Assembly: GCF_029227855.1 (NCBI RefSeq)
Contig: NZ_CP074356.1
DNA from: Escherichia coli
GTDB taxonomy: Bacteria > Pseudomonadota > Gammaproteobacteria > Enterobacterales > Enterobacteriaceae
DNA: 64,000 bases
Strand: one strand, 5' to 3'
Of the stretch, positions 1,188-22,800 are shown piece by piece (the first letter of the stretch is position 1; the number at the start of each line of letters is the position of its first letter). Under the pieces are notes generated by a model, which searched no databases, was not told where the DNA came from, and saw nothing but the letters and a program-made list of their open reading frames with translations. The translations under genes and the position numbers were made by a program.

Positions 1188-1303
1188 CTCTCTTTATCCC
1201 CATCTTTATCGCAATGCTTGCGCCTTTTTCCTGTGGCGTGAATAATTTCCTTATAGGCCGGTGAATGTTCAGCTTCCGGCGGCATACAGATAAGAGGAAC
1301 GGT

Positions 1304-2344
1304 TTGAACATAGACACTCGCGAAATCACCCTGGAGCCAGCAGACAATGCGCGTCTGTTGAGCCTGTGCGGCCCGTTTGATGACAACATCAAACAGCTCG
1401 AACGCCGTCTCGGCATCGAGATCAATCGCCGCGATAACCACTTTAAACTGACCGGCCGTCCGATTTGCGTCACCGCTGCGGCAGACATTCTGCGTAGCCT
1501 GTATGTCGATACAGCCCCGATGCGCGGTCAGATTCAGGATATCGAACCGGAACAGATCCACCTTGCGATTAAAGAAGCGCGGGTACTGGAGCAAAGCGCG
1601 GAGAGCGTGCCGGAGTACGGCAAAGCGGTCAATATCAAAACCAAACGCGGCGTAATCAAGCCGCGCACGCCAAACCAGGCGCAGTACATTGCCAATATTC
1701 TCGACCATGACATCACCTTCGGCGTTGGCCCGGCGGGTACGGGTAAAACCTACCTGGCAGTGGCTGCGGCAGTTGATGCCCTGGAGCGTCAGGAAATTCG
1801 CCGTATTCTGCTGACTCGTCCGGCGGTCGAAGCCGGTGAGAAACTGGGCTTCCTGCCTGGCGATTTAAGCCAGAAAGTAGACCCGTATCTGCGCCCACTG
1901 TACGACGCGCTGTTTGAAATGCTGGGCTTTGAGAAAGTCGAGAAACTGATTGAGCGCAACGTTATTGAAGTCGCGCCGCTGGCCTATATGCGTGGTCGTA
2001 CGCTGAACGACGCGTTTATCATTCTCGATGAGAGCCAGAACACCACCATCGAACAGATGAAGATGTTCCTGACCCGTATCGGTTTTAACTCAAAAGCGGT
2101 TATCACCGGCGACGTCACACAGATCGACCTGCCGCGTAATACCAAGTCAGGCTTGCGTCACGCCATCGAAGTGCTGGCTGACGTCGAAGAGATCAGCTTT
2201 AACTTCTTCCACAGCGAAGACGTGGTTCGTCACCCGGTGGTGGCGCGTATCGTTAACGCTTATGAAGCCTGGGAAGAAGCAGAACAAAAACGTAAAGCGG
2301 CGCTGGCAGCAGAACGCAAGCGCGAAGAACAGGAACAAAAATGA
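1304..2344 (+). CDS. ybeZ: PhoH-like ATPase YbeZ
   Basis: ORF 1265-2344. I prefer TTG 1304 as start: SD AAGAGGA at 1292-1298 with a 5-nt spacer, giving 346 aa as in the K-12 annotation I recall. ATG 1265 has no SD. Walker A GPAGTGKT. Confidence 0.9.
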
Positions 2345-2808
2345 GTCAGGTGATCCTCGATTTACAACTGGCATGTGAAGATAATTCCGGGTTACCGGAA
2401 GAGAGCCAGTTTCAAACATGGCTGAATGCGGTGATCCCGCAGTTTCAGGAAGAGTCGGAAGTGACTATTCGCGTGGTCGATACCGCCGAAAGCCACAGTC
2501 TGAATCTGACCTATCGCGGTAAGGATAAGCCGACCAACGTGCTCTCCTTCCCGTTTGAAGTGCCGCCTGGAATGGAGATGTCGCTACTGGGCGATCTGGT
2601 TATCTGCCGTCAGGTGGTTGAGAAGGAAGCACAGGAGCAAGGCAAACCACTGGAGGCGCACTGGGCGCATATGGTGGTGCACGGCAGTCTGCATTTGTTA
2701 GGTTACGATCACATCGAAGATGACGAAGCAGAAGAAATGGAAGCCCTCGAAACAGAGATTATGCTTGCTCTGGGCTATGAGGATCCGTACATTGCCGAGA
2801 AAGAATAA
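2341..2808 (+). CDS. ybeY: endoribonuclease YbeY (16S rRNA 3'-end maturation)
   Basis: 155-aa ORF. ATGA overlap with the ybeZ stop. Metal-binding [11 protein letters not shown] motif. Confidence 0.95.
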
Positions 2809-2897
2809 TTTGCCAGGCATTTGACTGGCAGATGTCCCCGCCGTTGGTGATTAACGACGGCGTTTTGATTAACTAACATGAGAACCCATACGACGCC

Positions 2898-3776
2898 ATG
2901 AGCGACGACAATTCACACAGTAGTGACACGATAAGCAACAAGAAGGGATTTTTCTCCCTGTTACTCAGCCAACTTTTCCACGGTGAACCGAAAAACCGTG
3001 ACGAACTGCTGGCGCTGATCCGTGATTCCGGGCAGAACGACCTTATCGACGAAGATACGCGCGATATGCTCGAAGGGGTGATGGACATCGCAGACCAACG
3101 CGTTCGCGACATCATGATCCCCCGCTCCCAGATGATTACCCTGAAACGCAACCAGACGCTGGACGAATGCCTTGATGTCATCATCGAGTCCGCCCACTCA
3201 CGTTTCCCGGTGATTAGCGAAGACAAAGATCACATTGAAGGGATTCTGATGGCGAAAGACTTGCTGCCGTTTATGCGCAGCGATGCTGAAGCCTTCAGCA
3301 TGGACAAAGTGTTACGTCAGGCGGTTGTCGTTCCTGAAAGTAAGCGCGTAGACCGGATGCTGAAAGAGTTTCGCTCTCAGCGTTACCACATGGCGATCGT
3401 CATTGACGAATTCGGTGGGGTTTCCGGTCTGGTGACCATTGAAGACATCCTGGAACTGATTGTTGGTGAGATTGAAGACGAGTATGACGAAGAAGATGAT
3501 ATCGACTTCCGTCAGCTGAGTCGTCATACCTGGACCGTGCGCGCACTGGCTTCCATTGAAGACTTCAACGAAGCGTTCGGCACCCACTTTAGCGATGAAG
3601 AGGTTGACACTATCGGTGGTCTGGTGATGCAGGCATTTGGGCATCTTCCGGCGCGTGGCGAAACCATCGACATCGACGGTTACCAGTTCAAAGTGGCGAT
3701 GGCTGACAGTCGGCGTATTATTCAGGTTCATGTCAAAATCCCGGATGACTCACCCCAGCCGAAGCTGGATGAATAA
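2898..3776 (+). CDS. corC: CorC/YbeX CBS-domain Mg/Co efflux-associated protein
   Basis: 292-aa ORF with the CBS-pair plus CorC_HlyC-type C-terminal layout. Sequence recognised as E. coli YbeX/CorC. Confidence 0.92.
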
Positions 3777-3800
3777 AACCGAAACTGGATAGATAACTAC

Positions 3801-5339
3801 ATGGCTTTTGCCTCATTAATTGAACGCCAGCGCATTCGCCTGCTGCTGGCGTTATTATTCGGTGCCTGCGGAACGCTGGCCTTCTCTCCTTACGACGTCT
3901 GGTCTGCGGCGATTATTTCGCTGATGGGGCTTCAGGCGCTGACCTTTAACCGCCGTCCACTCCAGTCTGCCGCTATTGGCTTTTGCTGGGGATTTGGCCT
4001 CTTTGGCAGCGGTATTAACTGGGTCTATGTCAGCATCGCGACTTTTGGCGGAATGCCTGGCCCGGTTAACATCTTCCTGGTGGTACTGCTGGCGGCGTAT
4101 TTGTCGCTGTATACCGGATTATTTGCTGGCGTGCTGTCGCGTCTGTGGCCGAAAACCACCTGGCTGCGCGTGGCTATTGCCGCCCCTGCTCTCTGGCAAG
4201 TGACCGAGTTTCTGCGCGGTTGGGTGCTGACTGGTTTCCCGTGGTTACAGTTCGGCTATAGCCAGATTGATGGCCCGTTAAAAGGGCTGGCACCGATAAT
4301 GGGCGTGGAAGCCATTAACTTCCTGCTAATGATGGTTAGCGGCCTGCTGGCACTGGCGTTGGTCAAACGCAACTGGCGTCCGATGGTGGTGGCCGTCGTG
4401 CTGTTCGCCCTTCCCTTCCCGCTGCGTTACATCCAGTGGTTTACCCCGCAACCGGAGAAAACCATTCAGGTTTCGATGGTTCAGGGCGATATTCCGCAAT
4501 CGCTGAAGTGGGACGAAAGCCAGCTTCTTAATACGCTGAAAATTTATTACAACGCGACGGCACCGCTGATGGGCAAATCGTCGCTGATTATCTGGCCGGA
4601 GTCGGCGATAACCGATCTGGAAATTAATCAGCAACCGTTCCTCAAAGCACTGGACGGTGAGTTGCGCGATAAAGGTAGCTCGCTGGTCACCGGGATTGTC
4701 GACGCGCGTCTCAATAAGCAGAACCGCTACGATACCTACAACACCATCATCACGCTGGGGAAAGGTGCGCCGTACAGCTACGAATCAGCCGATCGCTATA
4801 ACAAAAACCATCTGGTGCCGTTTGGCGAGTTTGTCCCGCTGGAGTCGATTCTGCGTCCGTTAGCGCCGTTCTTTGATCTGCCGATGTCGTCGTTCAGCCG
4901 TGGGCCATATATCCAGCCGCTGCTGTCGGTAAACGGTATTGAGCTTACTGCGGCTATTTGCTACGAGATCATTCTTGGCGAGCAAGTGCGTGATAACTTC
5001 CGCCCGGATACCGACTACCTGCTGACTATCTCCAACGATGCGTGGTTTGGTAAATCTATTGGTCCATGGCAACACTTCCAGATGGCGCGAATGCGTGCGC
5101 TGGAGTTGGCGCGCCCGCTACTGCGCAGCACCAATAACGGCATTACGGCGGTGATTGGCCCGCAGGGTGAGATTCAGGCGATGATCCCGCAATTCACCCG
5201 CGAAGTATTAACCACTAACGTGACGCCGACTACCGGACTCACACCGTACGCACGTACCGGCAACTGGCCGCTGTGGGTACTGACGGCATTGTTTGGTTTT
5301 GCTGCTGTGCTGATGAGCCTGCGTCAACGACGTAAATAA
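3801..5339 (+). CDS. lnt: apolipoprotein N-acyltransferase Lnt
   Basis: 512-aa ORF with a polytopic N-terminal half and a C-N hydrolase domain carrying the catalytic Cys context [10 protein letters not shown]. Confidence 0.95.
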
Positions 5340-5385
5340 TCCCTTCTTATCGTGCCGGAATACATCCCGTATTTCGGCACGCTCA

Positions 5386-5413
5386 CCGGATGCGGCATCA
5401 GTGCGTTATCCGG
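5386..5413. repeat. REP-like palindromic unit
   Basis: CCGGATGCGGCatcagtGCgTTATCCGG closely resembles the E. coli REP consensus (GCCGGATGCGGCG...CTTATCCGGCC). It is preceded by a second hairpin, GTGCCGGAATA/TATTTCGGCAC (5352-5380), just after lnt. Confidence 0.55.
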
Positions 5414-5438
5414 ATAACAAAATTCCCCTATCCAACTT

Positions 5439-5454
5439 TGGCACATCTATTGCT
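5439..5454 (+). promoter_or_regulatory. sigma-54 (-24/-12) promoter upstream of gltI
   Basis: TGGCACatctaTTGCT has GG-N10-GC spacing and matches TGGCAC-N5-TTGCW at every specified position. gltIJKL is reported to be Ntr/sigma-54 dependent (recalled). The site lies about 280 nt upstream of the gltI ATG. Confidence 0.6.
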
Positions 5455-5671
5455 TTGTTATACAAGGCAAAGCTTGAACCAGCATCAGTACAACCCGGTT
5501 GCACCACAGCAATCCACGGGTAGCACCAAAAGAGTGCATTTTAAGAATTTTGCTTCGGAATGGTGCGGCGCATCTCGCAAAAACAAACAATAAAACAGCA
5601 ATATCTTTACATTTAACCAAACTAAATGTTACCTAACAGGCACAACACTGCACAATAAAGTTGCAGACGAT

Positions 5672-5694
5672 AACAACACAAACACTCACAACAG
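5672..5694 (+). promoter_or_regulatory. C/A-rich element in the gltI 5' UTR (GcvB sRNA target / translational enhancer)
   Basis: AACAACACAAACACTCACAACAG lies 42-64 nt upstream of the gltI ATG. This position and composition match the C/A-rich GcvB target described for Salmonella/E. coli gltI (recalled). Confidence 0.6.
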
Positions 5695-5735
5695 GTATCC
5701 ATGCGTTCTTAACGCAGAAGATAAAGGAGTTGGAT

Positions 5736-6644
5736 ATGCAATTACGTAAACCTGCCACAGCAATCCTCGCCCTGGCGCTTTCCGCAGGACTGGCACAGGC
5801 AGATGACGCCGTCCCGGCAGCAGGCAGTACGCTGGACAAAATCGCCAAAAACGGCGTGATTGTCGTCGGTCACCGTGAATCTTCAGTACCTTTCTCTTAT
5901 TACGACAATCAGCAAAAAGTGGTGGGTTACTCGCAGGATTACTCCAACGCCATTGTTGAAGCAGTGAAAAAGAAACTCAACAAACCGGACTTGCAGGTAA
6001 AACTGATTCCGATTACCTCACAAAACCGTATTCCACTGCTGCAAAACGGCACTTTCGATTTTGAATGTGGTTCTACCACCAACAACGTCGAACGCCAAAA
6101 ACAGGCGGCTTTCTCTGACACTATTTTCGTGGTCGGTACGCGCCTGCTGACCAAAAAGGGCGGCGATATCAAAGATTTCGCCGATCTGAAAGGTAAAGCC
6201 GTAGTCGTCACTTCCGGCACTACCTCTGAAGTTTTGCTCAACAAACTGAATGAAGAGCAAAAAATGAATATGCGAATTATCAGCGCCAAAGATCACGGTG
6301 ACTCTTTCCGCACCCTGGAAAGCGGTCGTGCCGTTGCCTTTATGATGGATGATGCTCTGCTGGCTGGTGAACGTGCGAAAGCGAAGAAACCAGACAACTG
6401 GGAAATCGTCGGCAAGCCGCAGTCTCAGGAAGCCTACGGTTGCATGTTGCGTAAAGACGATCCGCAGTTCAAAAAGCTGATGGATGACACTATCGCTCAG
6501 GTGCAGACCTCCGGTGAAGCGGAAAAATGGTTTGATAAATGGTTCAAAAACCCAATTCCGCCGAAAAACCTGAACATGAATTTCGAACTGTCAGACGAAA
6601 TGAAAGCACTGTTCAAAGAACCGAATGACAAGGCACTGAACTAA
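5736..6644 (+). CDS. gltI: glutamate/aspartate ABC transporter periplasmic binding protein GltI
   Basis: Track ORF 5661-6644. I chose ATG 5736 (MQLRKPATAILALALSAGLAQA signal peptide), preceded by SD AAGGAG at 5724-5729, giving 302 aa. Confidence 0.93.
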   Translation: MQLRKPATAILALALSAGLAQADDAVPAAGSTLDKIAKNGVIVVGHRESSVPFSYYDNQQKVVGYSQDYSNAIVEAVKKKLNKPDLQVKLIPITSQNRIPLLQNGTFDFECGSTTNNVERQKQAAFSDTIFVVGTRLLTKKGGDIKDFADLKGKAVVVTSGTTSEVLLNKLNEEQKMNMRIISAKDHGDSFRTLESGRAVAFMMDDALLAGERAKAKKPDNWEIVGKPQSQEAYGCMLRKDDPQFKKLMDDTIAQVQTSGEAEKWFDKWFKNPIPPKNLNMNFELSDEMKALFKEPNDKALN

Positions 6645-6802
6645 TTACAAGAACCAGGGGCGGAAATTCCAGCCCTCTCGATTGTTACGTAGCACGGACA
6701 GACTATACGCCTGATGGTCGTTCCCCATCGGGCCTGAAAACCGCAATACGCTGGGTAACAATCTTCGAGGGTAGCAGTTAACGCTGCTACCCTCTTTTTT
6801 CT
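6640..6802 (+). ncRNA. sroC: SroC sRNA (gltI-gltJ spacer-derived GcvB sponge)
   Basis: The 169-nt gltI-gltJ spacer ends in a strong intrinsic terminator: 11-bp stem GAGGGTAGCAG/CTGCTACCCTC at 6767-6794 plus T6 at 6795-6800. SroC is annotated at this position in K-12. The 5' end is placed from my recollection of a ~163-nt RNA overlapping the gltI stop. Confidence 0.6.
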
Positions 6803-6813
6803 GGAGTAGATTT

Positions 6814-7554
6814 ATGTCTATAGACTGGAACTGGGGTATTTTTTTACAACAAGCCCCGTTCGGCAACACCACCTATCTTGGTTGGATCTGGAGTGGTTTT
6901 CAGGTGACGATCGCTTTGTCGATCTGCGCCTGGATTATCGCTTTCCTCGTCGGTTCATTTTTCGGCATTTTACGTACCGTTCCAAACCGTTTTCTCTCCG
7001 GTCTGGGTACGTTGTATGTCGAACTGTTCCGCAACGTGCCGTTGATTGTGCAATTCTTTACCTGGTATCTGGTGATCCCGGAGCTGTTGCCGGAGAAAAT
7101 CGGCATGTGGTTTAAGGCCGAGCTGGATCCCAATATTCAGTTTTTCCTTTCATCCATGCTTTGCCTGGGGCTGTTTACCGCCGCCCGTGTTTGCGAACAG
7201 GTACGCGCCGCGATCCAGTCGCTGCCGCGTGGGCAGAAGAATGCCGCGCTGGCGATGGGTCTGACGCTGCCGCAGGCTTACCGCTATGTACTGTTGCCTA
7301 ATGCTTATCGCGTTATCGTCCCGCCGATGACCTCCGAGATGATGAACCTGGTGAAAAACTCCGCCATCGCCTCGACCATCGGTCTGGTGGATATGGCAGC
7401 GCAGGCCGGTAAATTGCTTGATTACTCAGCCCACGCCTGGGAGTCGTTTACCGCCATTACGCTTGCGTATGTGTTGATTAACGCTTTTATCATGCTGGTG
7501 ATGACGCTGGTTGAACGTAAAGTTCGCCTGCCCGGCAACATGGGGGGCAAATAA
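6814..7554 (+). CDS. gltJ: glutamate/aspartate ABC transporter permease GltJ
   Basis: 246-aa polytopic ORF. SD GGAG at 6803-6806. Recognised as GltJ. Confidence 0.93.
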
Positions 7555-8228
7555 TGTACGAGTTTGACTGGAGTTCCATTGTCCCTTCCCTGCCATATCT
7601 GCTGGATGGGCTGGTGATCACCCTGAAAATCACCGTCACGGCAGTCGTGATTGGTATTTTGTGGGGCACCATGCTGGCGGTGATGCGCTTGTCCAGCTTT
7701 GCGCCCGTAGCGTGGTTTGCCAAAGCCTACGTTAACGTATTCCGCTCGATTCCTTTAGTTATGGTTTTGCTGTGGTTTTACCTGATTGTGCCGGGTTTTC
7801 TGCAAAACGTGCTGGGATTATCGCCAAAAAATGATATCCGTTTAATTTCGGCAATGGTGGCGTTTTCGATGTTTGAAGCGGCCTACTATTCAGAGATTAT
7901 CCGTGCCGGTATTCAAAGTATTTCCCGTGGTCAGTCGAGCGCCGCGCTGGCGTTGGGAATGACTCACTGGCAGTCGATGAAACTGATTATTCTGCCGCAG
8001 GCTTTCCGCGCGATGGTGCCGCTGCTGCTCACTCAGGGCATCGTACTGTTCCAGGATACCTCGCTGGTGTATGTGTTATCTCTGGCCGATTTCTTCCGTA
8101 CCGCCTCAACCATTGGTGAGCGTGATGGTACGCAGGTTGAGATGATCCTGTTTGCCGGATTTGTTTATTTCGTTATTAGCCTTAGCGCGTCGTTGTTGGT
8201 CAGCTACTTGAAAAGAAGGACAGCATAA
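7554..8228 (+). CDS. gltK: glutamate/aspartate ABC transporter permease GltK
   Basis: 224-aa polytopic ORF. TAATG 1-nt overlap with gltJ. Confidence 0.93.
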
Positions 8229-8953
8229 TGATTACCCTGAAAAATGTTTCAAAATGGTATGGTCACTTTCAGGTGCTGACCGACTGCTCAACCGAAGTGA
8301 AAAAAGGCGAAGTGGTGGTGGTTTGCGGCCCGTCTGGTTCCGGTAAATCAACGCTGATTAAAACCGTCAACGGCCTCGAACCGGTGCAGCAAGGTGAAAT
8401 CACCGTCGATGGTATCGTGGTTAACGATAAGAAAACCGATCTGGCAAAGCTGCGTTCCCGCGTCGGGATGGTGTTCCAGCATTTCGAGTTGTTCCCCCAT
8501 TTGTCGATTATTGAAAACCTGACCCTGGCGCAGGTGAAAGTGCTAAAACGCGATAAAGCACCCGCTCGTGAAAAAGCATTGAAATTGCTGGAGCGCGTCG
8601 GGCTTTCCGCTCATGCCAATAAGTTTCCGGCGCAGCTTTCCGGCGGTCAGCAGCAGCGTGTGGCGATCGCTCGCGCATTGTGCATGGATCCTATTGCCAT
8701 GCTGTTCGACGAACCGACATCGGCGCTGGATCCGGAGATGATCAACGAAGTGCTGGACGTAATGGTCGAACTGGCGAATGAAGGAATGACCATGATGGTG
8801 GTGACCCACGAAATGGGCTTTGCCCGTAAAGTGGCGAATCGGGTGATCTTTATGGACGAGGGTAAAATTGTCGAAGACTCGCCGAAAGACGCTTTCTTCG
8901 ATGATCCGAAATCGGACCGCGCAAAAGACTTCCTCGCGAAAATCCTGCATTAA
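8228..8953 (+). CDS. gltL: glutamate/aspartate ABC transporter ATPase GltL
   Basis: 241 aa. Walker [10 protein letters not shown] and ABC signature [13 protein letters not shown] overlap with gltK. Confidence 0.95.
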
Positions 8954-9070
8954 TCACTCTGGCGCGCATACCCAATTGCGCGCCATCTCACGCTTTATCG
9001 TTTCGCCCCTCGTATCTGTTACATCCTGGCGTTACCCTTGTCGCAAAGAAGCACACAACAAGGAGCAACA

Positions 9071-10006
9071 ATGGCACTGCCAATTCTGTTAGATTGCGAC
9101 CCAGGTCATGACGACGCTATCGCAATAGTTCTTGCCCTCGCCTCACCAGAGCTTGATATCAAAGCAATTACGTCTTCCGCCGGAAACCAGACTCCAGAAA
9201 AAACCTTACGCAATGTTCTGCGTATGCTGACCTTGCTTAATCGCACCGATATTCCGGTGGCAGGCGGCGCGGTAAAACCGTTAATGCGTGAGTTGATTAT
9301 CGCGGACAATGTGCACGGTGAAAGCGGTCTCGACGGCCCGGCATTACCGGAACCGACGTTCGCACCGCAAAACTGTACGGCGGTAGAGCTGATGGCGAAA
9401 ACGCTGCGTGAAAGTGCGGAACCTGTCACGATTGTTTCTACCGGGCCGCAAACTAACGTTGCCTTGCTGCTCAATAGCCATCCGGAACTGCATAGCAAAA
9501 TTGCCCGTATCGTGATTATGGGCGGCGCAATGGGGCTTGGTAACTGGACGCCTGCGGCTGAATTTAATATTTACGTTGACCCGGAAGCGGCAGAAATTGT
9601 CTTCCAGTCAAGGATCCCGGTGGTGATGGCCGGTCTGGATGTTACTCATAAAGCGCAAATCCACGTTGAAGACACCGAGCGTTTCCGCGCGATTGGCAAC
9701 CCTGTTTCAACCATTGTTGCCGAACTGCTGGATTTCTTCCTCGAATATCATAAAGACGAAAAATGGGGCTTTGTCGGCGCACCGCTGCATGACCCATGCA
9801 CCATCGCCTGGCTGTTAAAACCGGAGTTGTTTACCACTGTTGAGCGCTGGGTTGGCGTGGAAACACAAGGGAAATATACCCAGGGTATGACGGTTGTTGA
9901 TTATTATTATCTGACCGGCAATAAACCGAATGCCTCTGTAATGGTCGATGTTGATCGTCAGGGCTTTGTTGATTTACTGGCTGATCGTCTGAAATTTTAC
10001 GCTTAA
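9071..10006 (+). CDS. rihA: pyrimidine-specific ribonucleoside hydrolase RihA
   Basis: Track ORF 9038-10006. I chose ATG 9071 ([16 protein letters not shown], nucleoside hydrolase DxDxxxDD motif) with SD AAGGAG at 9060-9065, giving 311 aa. Confidence 0.92.
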
Positions 10007-10012
10007 TCACTC

Positions 10013-10037
10013 GCCGGATGACATCACGCCATCCGGC
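10013..10037. repeat. REP-like hairpin between convergent rihA and ybeL
   Basis: GCCGGATG-acatcacgc-CATCCGGC is an 8-bp perfect stem. It is the only structured element in the 44-nt spacer between the two stop codons. Confidence 0.5.
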
Positions 10038-10050
10038 ACCACTCATTTCA

Positions 10051-10533
10051 TTAAGGCTCGAACGGGCGTCTCTGGAACTGGTCATGACCACATTTCGGGC
10101 ATAGCGTCAGCACTTCCGGTGTATAGATCGGGAGATGGAAATGACATTTCTCGCAGACCAGATTACCCAGCCCTACCACTTCTCCGCTGTGATAAACCCC
10201 GTGATGATTGAGGTCCTGGAAAACTTCGCGCCATTCAAGCTGCGTTTTATCGGTGATGTCTGCCAGTTCCTGCCACAAGCTTTCTTTAATCACCCGCATA
10301 AAGACGCTGTCAGACTCTTCTTTCAGGCTCTCTTCATAGCTCATGGCGAACTCTTCCAGGTCACGTCTGACAGCTCGCGTCAGCTCATCGACTTCGGTTC
10401 GCGTTAACTCCCCTGTTTTTATTACGCGCTCGCGCGCCTGTTCCACCAGTGCGTCGATATCACGTTCGCCATTGCGCAGGCGTTCGCTCAGTGACGCGAC
10501 CAGTTCACGGTAATATTGAGCAACCTTGTTCAT
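10051..10533 (-). CDS. ybeL: DUF1451 zinc-ribbon protein YbeL
   Basis: 160-aa ORF with a C-terminal CxxC...CxxC zinc ribbon (CEKCHFH...CPKCGHDQF). Recognised as YbeL; function unknown. Confidence 0.9.
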   Translation of the reverse strand: MNKVAQYYRELVASLSERLRNGERDIDALVEQARERVIKTGELTRTEVDELTRAVRRDLEEFAMSYEESLKEESDSVFMRVIKESLWQELADITDKTQLEWREVFQDLNHHGVYHSGEVVGLGNLVCEKCHFHLPIYTPEVLTLCPKCGHDQFQRRPFEP

Positions 10534-10767
10534 CGTTTCATCTCCCGGGTCGTTAACTGACTATAATAATAGACGTTCTTTGTTCCTTGCTTTGCTAATA
10601 CGCCCACAAACTCTGTAAATTAATGTATGAATAATCCGGGCATCATTTCAACGTCGAATGCGCGAAAGGCTGTTTTGACGCGGACGTTTGGGCTATGCTA
10701 TGCGGATCTGAAAAACCACCTCAACGCTACATTTGTAGCCGTATTGAAAACAGGACCACTGGCTGCC

Positions 10768-13350
10768 ATGCAAGAGCAATACCGCCCGGAAGAGATAGAA
10801 TCCAAAGTACAGCTTCATTGGGATGAGAAGCGCACATTTGAAGTAACCGAAGACGAGAGCAAAGAGAAGTATTACTGCCTGTCTATGCTTCCCTATCCTT
10901 CTGGTCGACTACACATGGGCCACGTACGTAACTACACCATTGGTGACGTGATCGCCCGCTACCAGCGTATGCTGGGCAAAAACGTCCTGCAGCCGATCGG
11001 CTGGGACGCGTTTGGTCTGCCTGCGGAAGGCGCGGCGGTGAAAAACAACACCGCACCGGCACCGTGGACGTACGACAACATCGCGTACATGAAAAACCAG
11101 CTCAAAATGCTGGGCTTTGGTTATGACTGGAGCCGCGAGCTGGCAACCTGTACACCGGAATACTACCGTTGGGAACAGAAATTCTTCACCGAGCTGTATA
11201 AAAAAGGCCTGGTATATAAGAAGACTTCTGCAGTCAACTGGTGCCCGAACGACCAGACCGTACTGGCGAACGAACAAGTTATCGACGGCTGCTGCTGGCG
11301 CTGCGATACCAAAGTTGAGCGTAAAGAGATCCCGCAATGGTTTATCAAAATCACCGCTTACGCTGACGAGCTGCTCAACGATCTGGATAAACTGGATCAC
11401 TGGCCAGACACCGTTAAAACCATGCAGCGTAACTGGATCGGTCGTTCCGAAGGCGTGGAAATCACCTTCAACGTTAACGACTATGACAACACGCTGACCG
11501 TTTACACTACCCGCCCGGACACCTTTATGGGTTGTACCTACCTGGCGGTAGCGGCGGGTCATCCGCTGGCGCAGAAAGCGGCGGAAAATAATCCTGAACT
11601 GGCGGCCTTTATTGACGAATGCCGTAACACCAAAGTTGCCGAAGCTGAAATGGCAACGATGGAGAAAAAAGGCGTCGATACTGGCTTTAAAGCGGTTCAC
11701 CCATTAACGGGCGAAGAAATTCCCGTTTGGGCAGCAAACTTCGTATTGATGGAGTACGGCACGGGCGCAGTTATGGCGGTTCCGGGTCACGACCAGCGCG
11801 ACTACGAGTTTGCCTCTAAATACGGCCTGAACATCAAACCGGTTATCCTGGCAGCTGACGGCTCTGAGCCAGATCTTTCTCAGCAAGCCCTGACTGAAAA
11901 AGGCGTTCTGTTCAACTCTGGCGAGTTCAACGGTCTTGACCATGAAGCGGCCTTCAACGCTATCGCCGATAAACTGACTGCGATGGGCGTTGGCGAGCGT
12001 AAAGTGAACTACCGTCTGCGCGACTGGGGTGTTTCCCGTCAACGTTACTGGGGCGCGCCGATTCCGATGGTGACGCTGGAAGACGGTACCGTAATGCCGA
12101 CCCCGGACGACCAGCTGCCGGTGATCCTGCCGGAAGATGTGGTGATGGACGGCATTACCAGCCCGATTAAAGCAGATCCGGAGTGGGCAAAAACTACCGT
12201 TAACGGTATGCCAGCACTGCGTGAAACCGACACTTTCGACACCTTTATGGAGTCCTCCTGGTACTATGCGCGCTACACTTGCCCGGAGTACAAAGAAGGT
12301 ATGCTGGATTCCAAAGCGGCTAACTACTGGCTGCCGGTGGATATCTACATTGGTGGTATCGAACACGCCATTATGCACCTGCTCTACTTCCGCTTCTTCC
12401 ACAAACTGATGCGTGATGCAGGTATGGTGAACTCTGACGAACCAGCGAAACAGTTGCTGTGTCAGGGTATGGTGCTGGCAGATGCCTTCTACTATGTTGG
12501 CGAAAACGGCGAACGTAACTGGGTTTCCCCGGTTGATGCTATCGTTGAACGTGACGAGAAAGGCCGTATCGTGAAAGCGAAAGATGCGGCTGGCCATGAA
12601 CTGGTTTATACCGGCATGAGCAAAATGTCCAAGTCGAAGAACAACGGTATCGACCCGCAGGTGATGGTTGAACGTTACGGCGCGGACACCGTTCGTCTGT
12701 TTATGATGTTTGCTTCTCCGGCTGATATGACTCTCGAATGGCAGGAATCCGGCGTGGAAGGGGCTAACCGCTTCCTGAAACGTGTCTGGAAACTGGTTTA
12801 CGAGCACACAGCGAAAGGTGATGTTGCGGCACTGAACGTTGATGCGCTGACTGAAGATCAGAAAGCGCTGCGTCGCGATGTGCATAAAACGATCGCTAAA
12901 GTGACCGATGATATCGGCCGTCGTCAGACCTTCAACACCGCAATTGCGGCGATTATGGAGCTGATGAACAAACTGGCGAAAGCACCGACCGATGGCGAGC
13001 AGGACCGCGCCCTGATGCAGGAAGCGCTGCTGGCGGTAGTCCGTATGCTTAACCCGTTCACCCCGCACATCTGCTTCACGCTGTGGCAGGAACTGAAAGG
13101 CGAAGGCGATATCGACAACGCACCGTGGCCGGTTGCTGACGAAAAAGCGATGGTGGAAGACTCCACGCTGGTCGTGGTGCAGGTTAACGGTAAAGTCCGT
13201 GCAAAAATCACCGTTCCGGTGGACGCAACGGAAGAACAGGTTCGCGAACGTGCTGGCCAGGAACATCTGGTAGCAAAATATCTTGATGGCGTTACCGTGC
13301 GTAAAGTGATTTACGTACCCGGTAAACTCCTCAATCTGGTCGTTGGCTAA
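10768..13350 (+). CDS. leuS: leucyl-tRNA synthetase
   Basis: Track ORF 10627-13350. I chose ATG 10768 ([15 protein letters not shown]...), giving 860 aa. HMGH (HIGH) and KMSKS class-I motifs are present. Confidence 0.95.
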
Positions 13351-13946: not shown

Positions 13947-14977
13947 TGATTCGGTTGTACCCGGAACAACTCCGCGCGCAGCTCAATGAAGGGCTGCGCG
14001 CGGCGTATCTTTTACTTGGTAACGATCCTCTGTTATTGCAGGAAAGCCAGGACGCTATTCGTCAGGTCGCTGCGGCGCAAGGGTTCGAAGAACACCACAC
14101 TTTTTCCATTGATCCCAACACTGACTGGAATGCGATCTTTTCGTTATGCCAGGCCATGAGTCTGTTTGCCAGTCGACAAACGCTATTGCTGTTGTTACCC
14201 GAAAACGGACCGAATGCGGCGATCAATGAACAACTTCTCACACTCACCGGACTTCTGCATGACGACCTGCTGTTGATCGTCCGCGGTAATAAATTAAGCA
14301 AAGCGCAAGAAAATGCCGCCTGGTTTACTGCTCTTGCGAATCGCAGCGTGCAGGTGACCTGTCAGACACCGGAGCAGGCTCAGCTTCCCCGCTGGGTTGC
14401 TGCGCGTGCAAAACAGCTCAACTTAGAACTGGATGACGCTGCAAACCAAGTGCTCTGCTACTGTTATGAAGGTAACCTGCTGGCGCTGGCCCAGGCACTG
14501 GAGCGTTTATCGCTGCTCTGGCCAGACGGCAAACTGACATTACCGCGCGTTGAACAGGCGGTGAATGATGCCGCGCATTTCACCCCTTTTCATTGGGTTG
14601 ATGCTTTGTTGATGGGAAAAAGTAAGCGCGCGTTGCATATTCTTCAGCAACTTCGTCTGGAAGGCAGCGAACCGGTTATTTTGTTGCGCACATTACAACG
14701 TGAACTGTTGTTACTGGTTAACCTGAAACGCCAGTCTGCCCATACGCCACTGCGTGCATTGTTTGATAAGCATCGGGTATGGCAGAACCGCCGGGGCATG
14801 ATGGGCGAGGCGTTAAATCGCTTAAGCCAGCCGCAGTTACGTCAGGCCGTGCAACTCCTGACACGAACGGAACTCACCCTCAAACAAGATTACGGTCAGT
14901 CAGTGTGGGCAGAGCTGGAAGGGTTATCTCTTCTGTTGTGCCATAAACCTCTGGCGGACGTATTTATCGACGGTTGA
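13946..14977 (+). CDS. holA: DNA polymerase III delta subunit
   Basis: 343 aa. TGATG 1-nt overlap with lptE. Recognised as HolA. Confidence 0.93.
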
Positions 14978-14978
14978 T

Positions 14979-15620
14979 ATGAAATCTTTACAGGCTCTGT
15001 TTGGCGGCACCTTTGATCCGGTGCACTATGGACATCTTAAACCCGTGGAAACGCTGGCGAATTTGATTGGTCTGACGCGGGTCACAATCATCCCTAATAA
15101 TGTTCCTCCGCATCGTCCCCAGCCGGAAGCGAACAGCGTGCAGCGTAAACACATGCTTGAACTGGCGATTGCCGACAAGCCATTATTTACTCTTGATGAA
15201 CGCGAGCTAAAGCGCAATGCCCCCTCTTACACTGCGCAAACACTGAAAGAGTGGCGGCAGGAACAAGGGCCAGACGTGCCGCTGGCGTTTATTATTGGTC
15301 AGGATTCACTGCTGACCTTTCCGACCTGGTACGAATACGAAACGATACTCGACAATGCACATTTGATCGTCTGTCGGCGTCCAGGTTACCCACTTGAAAT
15401 GGCGCAACCGCAATACCAGCAATGGCTGGAAGATCATTTGACACATAACCCGGAAGATCTTCACCTTCAGCCTGCCGGTAAAATTTATCTGGCTGAAACG
15501 CCGTGGTTTAACATCTCGGCGACCATCATCCGCGAACGTTTGCAAAACGGTGAATCGTGTGAGGATTTATTGCCGGAACCGGTACTGACTTACATTAACC
15601 AACAAGGCTTGTATCGCTGA
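14979..15620 (+). CDS. nadD: nicotinate-mononucleotide adenylyltransferase
   Basis: 213 aa. [11 protein letters not shown] nucleotidyltransferase motif. Starts 1 nt after the holA stop. Confidence 0.94.
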
Positions 15621-17333: not shown

Positions 17334-19235
17334 ATGAAACTACAGAACTCTTTTCGCGACTATACGGCAGAGTCCGCGCTGTTTGTGCGCCGGGCGCTGG
17401 TCGCCTTTTTGGGGATTTTGCTGCTGACCGGCGTGCTTATCGCCAACCTGTATAATCTGCAAATTGTTCGCTATACCGATTACCAGACCCGCTCTAATGA
17501 AAACCGCATTAAGCTGGTGCCTATCGCGCCCAGCCGCGGCATTATCTACGACCGTAACGGTATCCCTCTGGCCCTCAACCGCACTATCTACCAGATAGAA
17601 ATGATGCCGGAGAAAGTCGATAACGTGCAGCAAACGCTGGACGCTTTGCGCAGCGTGGTTGATCTGACCGATGACGATATTGCTGCATTCCGAAAAGAGC
17701 GCGCACGTTCACACCGTTTCACCTCCATTCCGGTGAAAACTAACCTGACCGAAGTACAAGTAGCTCGCTTTGCCGTCAATCAGTACCGTTTTCCGGGTGT
17801 TGAAGTTAAAGGCTATAAACGTCGTTACTATCCTTACGGTTCGGCGTTGACCCACGTCATCGGCTATGTGTCGAAAATCAACGATAAAGACGTCGAACGC
17901 CTGAATAATGACGGCAAACTGGCCAACTATGCGGCAACGCATGATATCGGTAAGCTGGGCATTGAGCGTTACTATGAAGACGTGCTGCACGGTCAGACCG
18001 GTTATGAAGAGGTTGAAGTTAACAACCGTGGGCGTGTTATCCGCCAGTTAAAAGAAGTGCCACCGCAAGCCGGACACGATATTTACCTGACGCTGGATCT
18101 CAAACTCCAGCAATATATTGAAACGCTGCTGGCGGGTAGCCGCGCAGCGGTGGTAGTCACCGATCCGCGTACAGGTGGGGTGCTGGCGCTGGTTTCCACG
18201 CCTAGTTATGACCCAAACCTATTTGTTGACGGTATCTCCAGCAAAGATTATTCCGCCTTGCTGAACGACCCGAATACACCGCTGGTGAACCGCGCCACAC
18301 AGGGGGTTTATCCTCCCGCGTCTACAGTTAAACCCTATGTGGCGGTTTCGGCATTGAGCGCCGGAGTGATCACGCGCAATACGACGCTGTTTGACCCAGG
18401 CTGGTGGCAACTGCCAGGTTCGGAAAAACGTTATCGTGACTGGAAAAAATGGGGCCACGGGCGTCTGAATGTCACAAGATCGCTGGAAGAATCTGCGGAT
18501 ACCTTCTTCTATCAGGTGGCCTACGATATGGGAATCGATCGCCTCTCCGAATGGATGGGTAAATTCGGTTATGGTCATTACACCGGTATCGACCTGGCGG
18601 AAGAACGTTCCGGCAACATGCCTACCCGCGAATGGAAACAGAAACGCTTTAAAAAACCGTGGTATCAGGGTGACACCATTCCGGTTGGTATCGGTCAGGG
18701 TTACTGGACAGCGACCCCAATCCAGATGAGTAAGGCACTGATGATCCTGATTAATGACGGTATCGTGAAGGTTCCGCATTTGCTGATGAGCACCGCCGAA
18801 GACGGCAAACAGGTGCCATGGGTACAACCGCATGAACCGCCCGTCGGCGATATTCATTCCGGTTACTGGGAGCTGGCAAAAGACGGTATGTACGGTGTTG
18901 CTAACCGCCCTAACGGTACGGCGCATAAATACTTTGCCAGCGCACCGTACAAAATTGCGGCGAAATCTGGTACAGCTCAGGTCTTCGGTCTGAAAGCGAA
19001 CGAAACCTATAATGCGCACAAAATTGCCGAGCGTTTACGTGACCACAAACTGATGACTGCCTTTGCGCCATACAACAATCCGCAAGTGGCTGTCGCCATG
19101 ATTCTGGAGAACGGTGGCGCGGGTCCAGCGGTTGGTACGCTGATGCGCCAGATCCTCGACCACATTATGCTGGGTGATAACAACACCGATCTGCCTGCGG
19201 AAAATCCAGCGGTTGCCGCAGCGGAGGACCATTAA
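17334..19235 (+). CDS. mrdA: penicillin-binding protein 2 (elongasome transpeptidase)
   Basis: 633 aa with an N-terminal TM anchor and SxxK active site (ASTVKP). Confidence 0.95.
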
Positions 19236-19237
19236 TC

Positions 19238-20350
19238 ATGACGGATAATCCGAATAAAAAAACATTCTGGGATAAAGTCCATCTCGATCCCACAATGCTG
19301 CTGATCTTACTGGCATTGCTGGTTTACAGCGCCCTGGTTATCTGGAGCGCCAGCGGTCAGGATATTGGCATGATGGAGCGTAAAATCGGCCAAATCGCGA
19401 TGGGTCTGGTCATCATGGTGGTGATGGCGCAAATTCCTCCACGCGTTTATGAAGGCTGGGCCCCCTATCTCTATATCATCTGTATTATTTTGCTGGTGGC
19501 AGTAGATGCTTTTGGTGCCATCTCTAAAGGCGCTCAACGCTGGCTGGACCTCGGTATCGTTCGTTTTCAGCCGTCGGAAATTGCCAAAATAGCCGTACCA
19601 CTGATGGTAGCGCGCTTTATCAACCGCGACGTTTGCCCGCCATCGTTGAAGAACACTGGCATCGCGCTGGTGCTGATATTTATGCCCACGCTGCTGGTGG
19701 CTGCACAGCCTGACCTGGGAACATCAATCCTCGTTGCGCTTTCCGGTCTGTTTGTACTGTTCCTCTCTGGCCTTAGCTGGCGTCTGATTGGCGTCGCAGT
19801 AGTGCTGGTAGCGGCGTTCATTCCGATTCTGTGGTTCTTCCTGATGCATGATTACCAGCGCCAGCGCGTAATGATGCTCCTGGACCCGGAATCAGACCCA
19901 CTCGGCGCGGGCTATCACATTATTCAGTCTAAAATTGCTATTGGCTCCGGCGGATTACGCGGCAAAGGCTGGCTGCACGGCACTCAGTCACAACTTGAAT
20001 TTCTCCCCGAACGCCATACCGACTTTATCTTCGCGGTACTGGCGGAAGAGCTGGGATTAGTGGGCATTTTGATTCTGCTCGCTCTCTACATTCTGCTGAT
20101 CATGCGCGGGCTGTGGATAGCCGCCAGAGCGCAAACCACCTTTGGTCGCGTCATGGCTGGCGGCTTAATGCTGATATTATTCGTTTATGTCTTCGTAAAT
20201 ATTGGTATGGTAAGCGGTATTCTGCCGGTTGTAGGGGTTCCGCTCCCACTGGTCAGTTATGGAGGATCGGCGCTAATTGTGCTGATGGCTGGGTTCGGGA
20301 TTGTAATGTCAATCCACACCCACAGGAAAATGTTGTCGAAAAGCGTGTAA
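19238..20350 (+). CDS. mrdB: SEDS peptidoglycan glycosyltransferase RodA
   Basis: 370-aa polytopic ORF starting 2 nt after the mrdA stop. Recognised as RodA. Confidence 0.95.
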
Positions 20351-20360
20351 GAGGTGCGCA

Positions 20361-21449
20361 ATGCGTAAGCAGTGGCTCGGGATCTGCATCGCGGCAGGAA
20401 TGCTCGCGGCATGTACAAGCGATGATGGTCAGCAACAGACGGTAAGTGTACCGCAGCCTGCGGTATGTAACGGCCCCATAGTTGAAATTAGCGGGGCGGA
20501 CCCGCGTTTCGAACCACTGAACGCGACGGCAAATCAGGATTACCAGCGCGACGGTAAAAGCTACAAAATCGTGCAGGATCCGTCTCGATTTAGCCAGGCG
20601 GGACTGGCGGCAATCTATGATGCCGAACCCGGCAGTAACCTGACGGCCTCTGGCGAAGCATTCGATCCGACACAGTTGACGGCGGCCCATCCAACGCTTC
20701 CGATCCCCAGCTACGCCAGAATCACTAACCTGGCTAACGGGCGAATGATCGTGGTGCGCATTAATGATCGCGGTCCTTACGGCAACGACCGCGTTATTTC
20801 GCTTTCTCGCGCGGCAGCTGACCGTCTTAACACGTCAAACAACACCAAAGTTCGTATCGATCCGATTATTGTCGCCCAGGATGGTTCGCTTTCTGGTCCT
20901 GGTATGGCTTGTACCACAGTTGCCAAACAGACTTACGCCCTGCCTGCACCTCCCGATTTAAGCGGTGGCGCGGGAACAAGTTCAGTGTCTGGCCCGCAGG
21001 GTGACATTCTTCCGGTCAGTAATTCGACGCTAAAAAGCGAAGATCCGACCGGCGCGCCGGTAACCAGCAGCGGTTTCCTCGGTGCACCAACGACGTTAGC
21101 GCCTGGTGTGCTGGAAGGCAGCGAACCAACACCTGCGCCACAGCCCGTTGTTACAGCCCCCTCGACAACGCCTGCAACCTCGCCTGCAATGGTGACACCG
21201 CAAGCCGACTCACAAAGCGCCAGCGGCAACTTTATGGTGCAAGTCGGGGCCGTTAGCGATCAGGCTCGTGCGCAACAGTACCAACAGCAACTGGGACAGA
21301 AGTTCGGCGTCCCCGGTCGCGTAACTCAAAATGGCGCGGTCTGGCGGATCCAGCTTGGCCCATTCGCCAGCAAAGCCGAAGCCAGTACCTTGCAGCAACG
21401 TTTGCAAACCGAAGCCCAATTACAGTCATTTATTACCACCGCGCAGTAG
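20361..21449 (+). CDS. rlpA: septal ring lytic transglycosylase-like lipoprotein RlpA (SPOR domain)
   Basis: 362 aa. Lipobox MLAAC, a Pro/Thr/Ser-rich linker and a C-terminal SPOR-like domain. Confidence 0.93.
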   Translation: MRKQWLGICIAAGMLAACTSDDGQQQTVSVPQPAVCNGPIVEISGADPRFEPLNATANQDYQRDGKSYKIVQDPSRFSQAGLAAIYDAEPGSNLTASGEAFDPTQLTAAHPTLPIPSYARITNLANGRMIVVRINDRGPYGNDRVISLSRAAADRLNTSNNTKVRIDPIIVAQDGSLSGPGMACTTVAKQTYALPAPPDLSGGAGTSSVSGPQGDILPVSNSTLKSEDPTGAPVTSSGFLGAPTTLAPGVLEGSEPTPAPQPVVTAPSTTPATSPAMVTPQADSQSASGNFMVQVGAVSDQARAQQYQQQLGQKFGVPGRVTQNGAVWRIQLGPFASKAEASTLQQRLQTEAQLQSFITTAQ

Positions 21450-21588
21450 CGTAAAGCAGGCATCTGATGTGTCAATTTCTGTAAATGACGTTAACAAAGT
21501 CACGCGGAAAGTCAGATGCCTGCCGGTAGTGCATTTGCTATAGTAGGGCACTTTTTTTAATTCCATCACGGATGTCGTAGTTCAGACC

Positions 21589-22800
21589 ATGAATACCATT
21601 TTTTCCGCTCGTATCATGAAGCGCCTGGCGCTCACCACGGCTCTTTGCACAGCCTTTATCTCTGCTGCACATGCCGATGACCTGAATATCAAAACTATGA
21701 TCCCGGGTGTACCGCAGATCGATGCGGAGTCCTACATCCTGATTGACTATAACTCCGGCAAAGTGCTCGCCGAACAGAACGCAGATGTCCGCCGCGATCC
21801 TGCCAGCCTGACCAAAATGATGACCAGTTACGTTATCGGCCAGGCAATGAAAGCCGGTAAATTTAAAGAAACTGATTTAGTCACTATCGGCAACGACGCA
21901 TGGGCCACCGGTAACCCGGTGTTTAAAGGCTCTTCACTGATGTTCCTCAAACCGGGCATGCAGGTTCCGGTTTCTCAGCTGATCCGCGGTATTAACCTGC
22001 AATCGGGTAACGATGCTTGTGTCGCCATGGCCGATTTTGCCGCTGGTAGCCAGGACGCTTTTGTTGGCTTGATGAACAGCTACGTTAACGCCCTGGGCCT
22101 GAAAAATACCCACTTCCAGACGGTACATGGTCTGGATGCTGATGGTCAGTACAGCTCCGCGCGAGATATGGCGCTGATCGGCCAGGCGTTGATCCGTGAC
22201 GTACCGAATGAATACTCGATCTATAAAGAAAAAGAATTTACGTTTAACGGTATTCGCCAGCTGAACCGTAACGGTCTGTTATGGGATAACAGCCTGAATG
22301 TCGACGGCATCAAAACCGGACACACTGACAAAGCAGGTTACAACCTTGTTGCTTCTGCGACTGAAGGCCAGATGCGCTTGATCTCTGCGGTGATGGGCGG
22401 ACGTACTTTTAAAGGCCGTGAAGCCGAAAGTAAAAAACTGCTGACCTGGGGCTTCCGTTTCTTCGAAACCGTTAACCCACTGAAAGTAGGTAAAGAGTTC
22501 GCCTCTGAACCGGTTTGGTTTGGTGATTCTGATCGCGCTTCGTTAGGTGTTGATAAAGACGTGTATCTGACCATTCCGCGTGGCCGCATGAAAGATCTGA
22601 AAGCCAGCTATGTGCTGAACAGCAGTGAATTGCATGCGCCGCTGCAAAAGAATCAGGTCGTCGGTACTATCAACTTCCAGCTTGATGGCAAAACGATCGA
22701 ACAACGCCCGCTGGTTGTGCTGCAAGAAATCCCGGAAGGCAACTTCTTCGGCAAAGTCATTGATTACATTAAATTAATGTTCCATCACTGGTTTGGTTAA
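21589..22800 (+). CDS. dacA: D-alanyl-D-alanine carboxypeptidase PBP5
   Basis: 403 aa. Signal peptide, SLTK (SxxK) motif and a C-terminal amphipathic anchor. Confidence 0.95.

Follow-up and report, generated by a model that had tools for sequence, protein, structure and literature searches.

The analysed window was a 64,000-nt stretch of Escherichia coli DNA, 100% identical to strain JNEC-KY178 across 24 kb. Its gene order around the site of interest was gltJ, gltK, gltL, rihA (+), then ybeL (-) and leuS (+), and the features are listed in Table 1. The convergent genes rihA and ybeL ended with stop codons at 10004-10006 (TAA) and 10051-10053 (TTA on the + strand), respectively, and the spacer between them was exactly 44 nt long (10007-10050), with the sequence TCACTCGCCGGATGACATCACGCCATCCGGCACCACTCATTTCA. 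The RihA and YbeL proteins of the window were 98.7% and 100% identical to their K-12 counterparts. No tRNA or tmRNA genes were found in the 64-kb window.

Table 1. Features of the rihA/ybeL site in the window.
Feature	Position	Strand	Basis
rihA, pyrimidine-specific ribonucleoside hydrolase, left flank	9071-10006	+	ORF; annotated in near-identical JNEC-KY178
Convergent intergenic spacer, most probably the unoccupied allele of the hscC-block site	10007-10050		Sequence, junction census, spacer orthology
Degenerate REP-type palindrome	10013-10037		8-bp perfect stem GCCGGATG/CATCCGGC, 9-nt loop
ybeL, DUF1451 zinc-ribbon protein, right flank	10051-10533	-	ORF; annotated in JNEC-KY178
leuS, core gene beyond ybeL	10768-13350	+	Flank for recombination and SNP comparisons

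The corresponding region of K-12 MG1655 had the order leuS, ybeL, ybeQ, ybeR, djlB, ybeT, ybeU, djlC, hscC, rihA, gltL, and 7,976 nt separated the stop codons of ybeL and rihA. The first-pass annotation had described the two stop codons as 44 nt apart and the K-12 block as absent, relying on a K-12 gene order that would have been wrong if rihA and ybeL were neighbors in K-12. The coordinates proved exact, the gene order was right, and the seven genes do lie between the two in MG1655. When the seven K-12 block proteins were used as tblastn queries, none of them matched anywhere in the 64-kb window. Hence, the window and the K-12 hscC locus share the same site between ybeL and rihA, with flank proteins 98-100% identical, and differ in what this site holds, namely a 44-nt REP spacer and none of the seven genes in the window versus 7,976 nt in K-12.

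A REP-like hairpin had been proposed as the only feature of the spacer, and a palindrome with an 8-bp stem, GCCGGATGACATCACGCCATCCGGC, was found exactly at the proposed place. It was laid out as GCCGGATG-ACATCACGC-CATCCGGC, beginning 6 nt past the rihA stop and 13 nt past the ybeL stop. The pattern GCC[GT]GAT…ATC[CA]GGC occurred once in the 64-kb window, to which the scan was confined, when 0.00-0.01 matches were expected by chance. Folded as RNA, the hairpin reached -14.8 kcal/mol (z -3.1) on the + strand and -21.8 kcal/mol (z -3.0) on the - strand. No terminator-like sites were found in 9700-10700, and no T-tract followed the hairpin on either strand. A canonical intrinsic (Rho-independent) terminator was therefore ruled out, as the G+C-rich hairpin lacked the T/U tract. 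A scan of 8000-12000 at E up to 1 returned no match to Rfam families.

The palindrome was compared with the features that define REPs. It was situated wholly inside the 44-nt spacer, that is, outside coding sequence, and GCCGGATGACATCACGCCATCCGGC agreed with the consensus stem GCC(G/T)GATG … CATC(C/A)GGC. The stem columns were invariant across genera when aligned with the canonical REPs found at the orthologous position. However, the GTAG abutting the foot of the palindrome, which is the tag recognized by RAYT proteins, was lacking: the stem was preceded by CTC on the + strand and by GTGG and one extra base on the - strand. The spacer of E. ruysiae still had GTAG at the same one-base offset, and a proper GTAG-GCCGGAT was present in Citrobacter braakii and Citrobacter Res13. 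Canonical REPs are roughly 35 nt long, with an inner stem and a bulge. The orthologous Citrobacter REPs were 33-36 nt, and the window palindrome, made up of its 8-bp perfect stem and 9-nt loop, measured 25 nt. Thus, the window element resembles REP/BIME elements in being extragenic, in lying between convergent genes at 6 and 13 nt from their stops, in its consensus stem GCCGGATG/CATCCGGC and in that Citrobacter and Salmonella carry canonical REPs with the GTAG tag at the orthologous position; it differs from them in its length of 25 nt and in the missing GTAG. The 64-kb window held a single copy of the pattern. Judging from these features, the hairpin is best described as a degenerate REP, short and devoid of the GTAG tag.

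REPs are described as stabilizing upstream mRNA (PMC12306157), and REPs within 15 nt of a stop codon as stalling terminating ribosomes and lowering translation (Liang, Rudd and Deutscher 2015, as cited in PMC12306157). By analogy with these published REPs, an effect of the hairpin on both convergent genes is plausible. It would most likely act on the 3' ends of both convergent mRNAs by protecting them from 3' exonucleases. With both stop codons less than 15 nt away, the hairpin would also be expected to dampen translation termination of rihA and ybeL.

The spacer was further compared between genomes. The spacer of CFT073 differed from that of the window by one base, those of the E. coli strains TKEC21-59 and SCPM-O-B-8794 by a 5-nt indel, and the E. 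ruysiae spacer between the same two stop codons was TAACTCGCCGGATGGTATCACGTCATCCGGCACTACCA. The window, CFT073, TKEC21-59, E. coli SCPM and E. ruysiae spacers could be aligned end to end, and on this alignment the window spacer is orthologous to that of E. ruysiae within Escherichia. The layout in Citrobacter FP75 and Pseudocitrobacter was a stop, 6 nt, GCCGGATG…CATCCGGC, 6-7 nt and a stop. A common layout of a stop, 5-7 nt, GCCGGAT…ATCCGGC, 6-13 nt and a stop also included Citrobacter, Pseudocitrobacter and Salmonella arizonae/diarizonae. One or two canonical GTAG-tagged REPs occupied the position in C. braakii, Citrobacter Res13, C. portucalensis, S. arizonae and S. diarizonae, and a different palindromic unit was found in the rihA/ybeL spacer of Enterobacter and its relatives. 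The proposed orthology across genera draws on position, orientation and REP-family sequence, which are not independent of the REP consensus. The hairpin may be the orthologue of the rihA-proximal REP of an ancestral pair, or it may be a collapsed pair; the alignment fits both equally well. The spacer would be orthologous either way, be the hairpin the rihA-proximal REP or a two-REP BIME collapsed to its outer arms.

A survey of outgroups was performed with YbeL, taking one genome per species and yielding 80 loci, with E. albertii, E. fergusonii and S. bongori outside the sample. Across these 80 species loci, ybeL stood directly against rihA, or against gltL where rihA was missing, in nearly all non-Escherichia genera. 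The adjacent arrangement was observed in nearly all Citrobacter, in S. arizonae/diarizonae, Enterobacter, Phytobacter, Pseudocitrobacter, Trabulsiella, Lelliottia and others, and the block was seen only in Escherichia among the loci of this survey. Since the distant genera that have no block at the site have both genes adjacent, the rihA/ybeL adjacency was taken as the older state.

Other contents were observed at the same junction in some of these genera. C. murliniae and Citrobacter Cu233 carried 7-8.5 kb operons at the ybeL/rihA junction (extracted loci from ~10484), which resembled chaperone-usher fimbriae by their ORF sizes and N-termini. By the same features, a ~4-kb pair in Leclercia and Silvania appeared to encode large secreted or outer-membrane-like proteins. 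E. quasihormaechei had a 1.9-kb three-gene insert of 36% GC. The strain Escherichia sp. MOD1-EC7003 carried an extra J-domain-like gene between ybeL and ybeQ (extracted locus 10578-12916), split into 93 + 344 aa and 27-29% identical to DjlB/DjlC. The same interval also encoded a 321-aa signal-peptide protein, the N-terminus of which resembled the lone ybeL-side insert in Superficieibacter and UBA5654.

The block itself was found to consist of a tandem duplication (ybeQ-ybeR-djlB / ybeT-ybeU-djlC), the units of which repeat every 2,797 nt and are 72-77% identical, together with hscC. In other words, it comprised two tandem copies of Sel1-repeat, DUF1266 and J-domain genes plus the Hsp70 gene. 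Pfam matches were recorded for Sel1, DUF1266 and HSP70, with a sub-threshold DnaJ match in DjlB and nothing for DjlC. HscC has been described as a specialized Hsp70 with an ATPase stimulated by DjlC; it works with DjlB and DjlC, its cellular role and mechanism being unclear, and an hscC deletion gives Cd2+ and UV phenotypes (PMC8215388). A REP was present between the convergent djlC and hscC genes in K-12 (extracted locus 9685-9716), and a BIME of two to three REPs was observed between the djlC and hscC stops in E. marmotae (extracted locus ~11590-11690). The djlC/hscC REP mirrors the REP of the empty allele between the convergent rihA and ybeL.

On the rihA side of K-12, ~7 nt (CACACGT) separated the rihA stop from block sequence, which began with a hairpin and the hscC leader. 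This block-edge hairpin and leader were homologous to the Salmonella hscC leader and hence belong to the block. The hscC leader hairpins of E. marmotae and S. enterica subsp. enterica were homologous as well. On the ybeL side, TAGTCTGATTTCGCAC and a terminator-like hairpin were situated between ybeL and ybeQ. The block junctions were conserved in E. coli, S. flexneri, E. whittamii and Escherichia sp. E1V33, and the ybeL-side junctions of Salmonella and E. coli were unlike.

In S. enterica subsp. enterica, HscC relatives were 83% identical to K-12 HscC, and the order at the same site was rihA, a 412-aa gene, hscC, djlC, DUF1266, djlB, DUF1266, ybeQ-like, ybeL. The 412-aa gene between rihA and hscC (extracted locus 8687-9925) gave no Pfam match, and a ybeT equivalent was missing from this block. 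Beyond ybeL, in place of leuS, this Salmonella carried a sigma-54 activator (PrpR_N), a KdgT transporter and a GD_AH dehydratase (17741-21680). E. marmotae had a one-module version of the block at the same site, and in one other organism a single module of hscC, J-protein, DUF1266 and Sel1 genes was located away from this site.

Compared gene by gene, the K-12 block DNA was 88-93% identical to that of other Escherichia species, with flanks at 90-96%, and 65-76% identical to that of Salmonella, with flanks at 81-86%. By these values, the divergence of the block has roughly kept pace with that of its hosts, at a somewhat higher rate. Given the same site, the conserved junctions and the divergence roughly in step with the flanks, the block was concluded to be old. 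Its position in both genera and its co-divergence with the flanks make it at least as old as Escherichia and Salmonella, and we infer that it arrived once at this site. GC3 was 0.38-0.53 in the block and 0.51-0.62 in the flanks, and this lower block GC3 fits a long-ago foreign origin.

No integrase, recombinase or transposase was found in the K-12 block by Pfam or in the RefSeq annotation, and no RAYT gene was found in the block. No direct or inverted repeats bounded the K-12 block, with direct repeats of at least 14 nt searched for at the boundaries. Repeats flanking the K-12 island, suggested earlier as a junction check, were thus not found. Of the features of a classical mobile genomic island, the block lacked an integrase, att or direct repeats and a tRNA, and showed only a deviant composition and a variable presence (the GC3 shift and occurrence in 81% of genomes). 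It matched no known anti-phage system either. HscC, DjlB, DjlC, YbeR, YbeU and the small cargo of enterotoxigenic strains described below gave no match to PADLOC-DB defence models. YbeQ and YbeT gave weak, repeat-driven matches to the start of PtuA (E 1e-4 and 5e-3) with no qualifying stretch. In the literature search, no paper was found that ties hscC to anti-phage activity, and nothing was found on DUF1266 or describing this variable rihA/ybeL site.

The states of the site were counted among 5,426 complete E. coli genomes, and the placement of these states in E. coli phylogroups covered named examples only. The hscC gene was present in 4,410 of them (81%), and an intact ybeR-djlB segment was present in only 3,713; the difference corresponds to about 700 hscC-carrying genomes with a partly deleted block. 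An empty junction was scored when one uninterrupted match covered at least 80% of window:9950-10110; this applied to 962 genomes (~18%), CFT073 among them, with identities in the range of 92.5-100%. The state of the window is therefore a frequent, publicly visible polymorphism, i.e. ordinary strain variation, and represents the common unoccupied allele of a known accessory locus.

Other small cargo at the rihA/ybeL site was restricted to 13 of the 5,426 genomes, mostly O169:H41 ETEC. This cargo was 1.3 kb long with 36% GC and encoded a DUF6985 protein and two small unannotatable ORFs (NZ_LR882990.1, extracted locus 2508-3784). The junction-proximal DNA on both sides of it was homologous to the hscC-block allele; hence, an exchange of cargo within the frame of the occupied allele appears to have taken place. 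Among the truncated blocks, strain DA33135 had lost djlB, ybeR and most of ybeQ, with a djlB remnant fused to the last third of ybeQ (extracted locus 12467-12932). E. marmotae showed a one-module state akin to that of DA33135 (extracted locus 14526-15140). Since about 700 E. coli genomes, DA33135 and E. marmotae carry reduced forms, the block is decaying in some lineages.

Strain-variable accessory-gene sites, or integration hotspots, are a general concept for the E. coli core chromosome. The rihA/ybeL site resembles them in its core-gene flanks and in its contents, which were empty, the full block, a partial block or the DUF6985 cargo in E. coli, and other cargo in other genera. It differs from them in having no tRNA, integrase, att repeats or phage remnants, and in that its main cargo is ancient and co-diverged with the host rather than a recent arrival. 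The behavior of the site is nothing unexpected for an accessory-gene site.

The linkage of the two states to the flanking DNA was also analysed. No fixed difference between empty and occupied flanks was found within E. coli over 420 nt on each side of the junction. The immediate flanks were shared by the window (empty) and strain TUM13867 (occupied), and likewise by CFT073 (empty) and DA33135 (truncated block). The window and TUM13867 were 99.5% identical over 13 kb on the leuS side and 97.3% identical over 5 kb on the rihA side. Neither in this pair nor between CFT073 and DA33135 was a clean, discrete import tract recognized, the flanks being mosaic. The empty alleles were situated on at least three flank backgrounds, and each allele class had its own conserved junction or spacer sequence. 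As the block is old and the flanking SNPs are unlinked to either state, two long-lived alleles were proposed. The missing linkage and the mosaic flanks suggest that homologous recombination took place. On the simplest reading of the sequences, the two alleles appear to be old and to have been reshuffled by homologous recombination, with the linkage eroded almost to the junction.

Based on these results, it was concluded that the convergent rihA/ybeL junction most probably harbors an old presence/absence polymorphism, of which the window spacer is the unoccupied allele of ancestral type. The first-pass annotation had left the choice between an ancestral empty site and a clean deletion scar. The empty site was favored, and the scar was disfavored by a spacer that is orthologous to that of E. 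ruysiae and contains no K-12 junction sequence. However, the word ancestral has to be qualified, since the block itself is ancient at the site, where several Escherichia species and S. enterica subsp. enterica carry it. The window strain carries the ancestral-type allele and does not necessarily represent a lineage that never met the block.

A deletion scar would be expected to be restricted to the deleted lineage and to be built of the outer ends or remnants of the block. Instead, E. ruysiae had this spacer type too, and the 962 E. coli genomes that had it represented at least three flank backgrounds. None of the junction sequences of K-12, E. whittamii, E1V33 and S. flexneri was found in the 44-nt spacer, and the window contained no fragments of block proteins. 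Because its 44 nt are absent from the occupied allele, the window spacer could not be derived from that allele by deletion. This bears most directly on a recent, lineage-specific clean deletion with the palindrome marking the recombination joint, to which the lineage-matched TUM13867, with its near-identical immediate flanks and the full block, lends some appearance. Such an event is effectively refuted by the missing 44 nt, by the one-base-different spacer in the distant CFT073 background and the close version in E. ruysiae, and by the span of 92.5-100% identity among the 962 genomes with the junction. An old deletion is unlikely rather than refuted. The block would then have been present in the ancestor of Escherichia, Salmonella and Citrobacter, and would have been lost cleanly once or a few times, after which REPs colonized the spacer. 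Escherichia species and S. enterica subsp. enterica do share the location of the block, which co-diverged with the flanks; partial deletions of it are common today (the ~700 E. coli genomes, DA33135 and E. marmotae), and REPs are mobile and favor positions just 3' of stop codons. However, the spacer holds no trace of the block ends, the layout of a stop, 5-7 nt and a palindrome recurs in four genera, and the more distant block-free genera have rihA and ybeL adjacent. As the block is found in both Escherichia and S. enterica, a purely vertical history would need several independent losses, and several independent clean deletions combined with convergent REP insertion are less parsimonious.

The palindrome had also been proposed as a landmark of recombination or insertion, and this part of the earlier reading found no support: the occupied ends carried no REP halves, direct repeats or mobility genes. 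In its specific form, the REP palindrome would be the target or landmark of a site-specific insertion, by a REP-targeting element or a RAYT event, that delivered the block. The block is situated exactly where the REP is situated in the empty allele, varied cargo is found at the same junction in other genera, and some IS families target REPs, ISPpu9 being the example described in PMC12288879. Nevertheless, such an insertion was considered very improbable, as the block ends had no REP half-sites or target duplications, the block had no transposase, integrase or RAYT gene, the palindrome had no GTAG tag of the kind that defines RAYT-recognized REPs, and the ybeL-side junctions of Salmonella and E. 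coli were unlike. The palindrome is the resident intergenic element that the block would have replaced. Two further candidates were rejected. The djlC/hscC REP as a displaced ancestral REP flanked by two insertions would need two events, and only the REP consensus is shared. The 'ACGTCAT' beside the K-12 rihA stop, considered as a remnant of a REP arm, lies in a stretch with homology to the hscC leader of the block itself, and this leader occurs in Salmonella too.

For the preferred reading of an unoccupied ancestral-type allele, the following order of events was proposed. The original enterobacterial state would have been rihA and ybeL with a short spacer between them, and in the Escherichia/Salmonella/Citrobacter group this spacer would have been colonized by one or two REP palindromes. 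The lower-GC accessory block would have been inserted long ago, replacing the REP spacer. Both alleles would since have been kept in Escherichia and in Salmonella, with homologous recombination in the conserved genes on either side probably carrying them from one lineage to another, without site-specific mobility.

It is conceivable, though rather improbable, that both alleles have coexisted at the site since before the split of Escherichia and Salmonella as a trans-generic polymorphism under long-term balancing or fluctuating selection. The alleles are split today in both genera, at 81% versus 18% in E. coli, and between S. enterica subsp. enterica and arizonae/diarizonae. If such selection took place, the HscC system would be conditionally costly and conditionally beneficial, for example in a setting of conflict or stress. 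For the question of what HscC does, it is of some interest that both alleles have long coexisted in two genera. HscC, DjlB and DjlC are not part of the E. coli core: about one fifth of the genomes, the uropathogen CFT073 included, lack the system, and about one eighth more have it truncated. Therefore, findings made in K-12 on the third E. coli Hsp70 are not transferable to all strains. Further, genes neatly missing in comparison with K-12 have not necessarily been deleted; here, outgroups together with the junction DNA show the empty arrangement to be the older one.

Two minor observations were made nearby. In CP169086.1, labelled Enterobacter hormaechei B17-3 (extracted locus ~4950-10870), leuS and the part from rihA onward were 98-99% E. 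coli-like, while ybeL and a 2-kb stretch beyond leuS were 92-99% like Enterobacter quasiroggenkampii, and the rihA/ybeL spacer consisted of four tandem Enterobacter-type palindromic units. A cross-genus replacement ending at the junction was considered and set aside, as short stretches resembling E. coli were interspersed with others resembling Enterobacter; the locus may be a genuine mosaic of the two genera or a chimera that arose when a mixed culture was assembled. The lnt-gltI intergenic region of the window (~5340-5660) had no rhomboid protease gene, and the same was observed in TUM13867 and E. marmotae. A 1.9-kb gene of a rhomboid-family serine protease was situated between lnt and gltI in CFT073 (extracted locus 6416-8293), and the same gene was present in DA33135 (extracted locus 1231-3108). 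This gene is a second presence/absence difference, 4.5 kb from the rihA/ybeL spacer.
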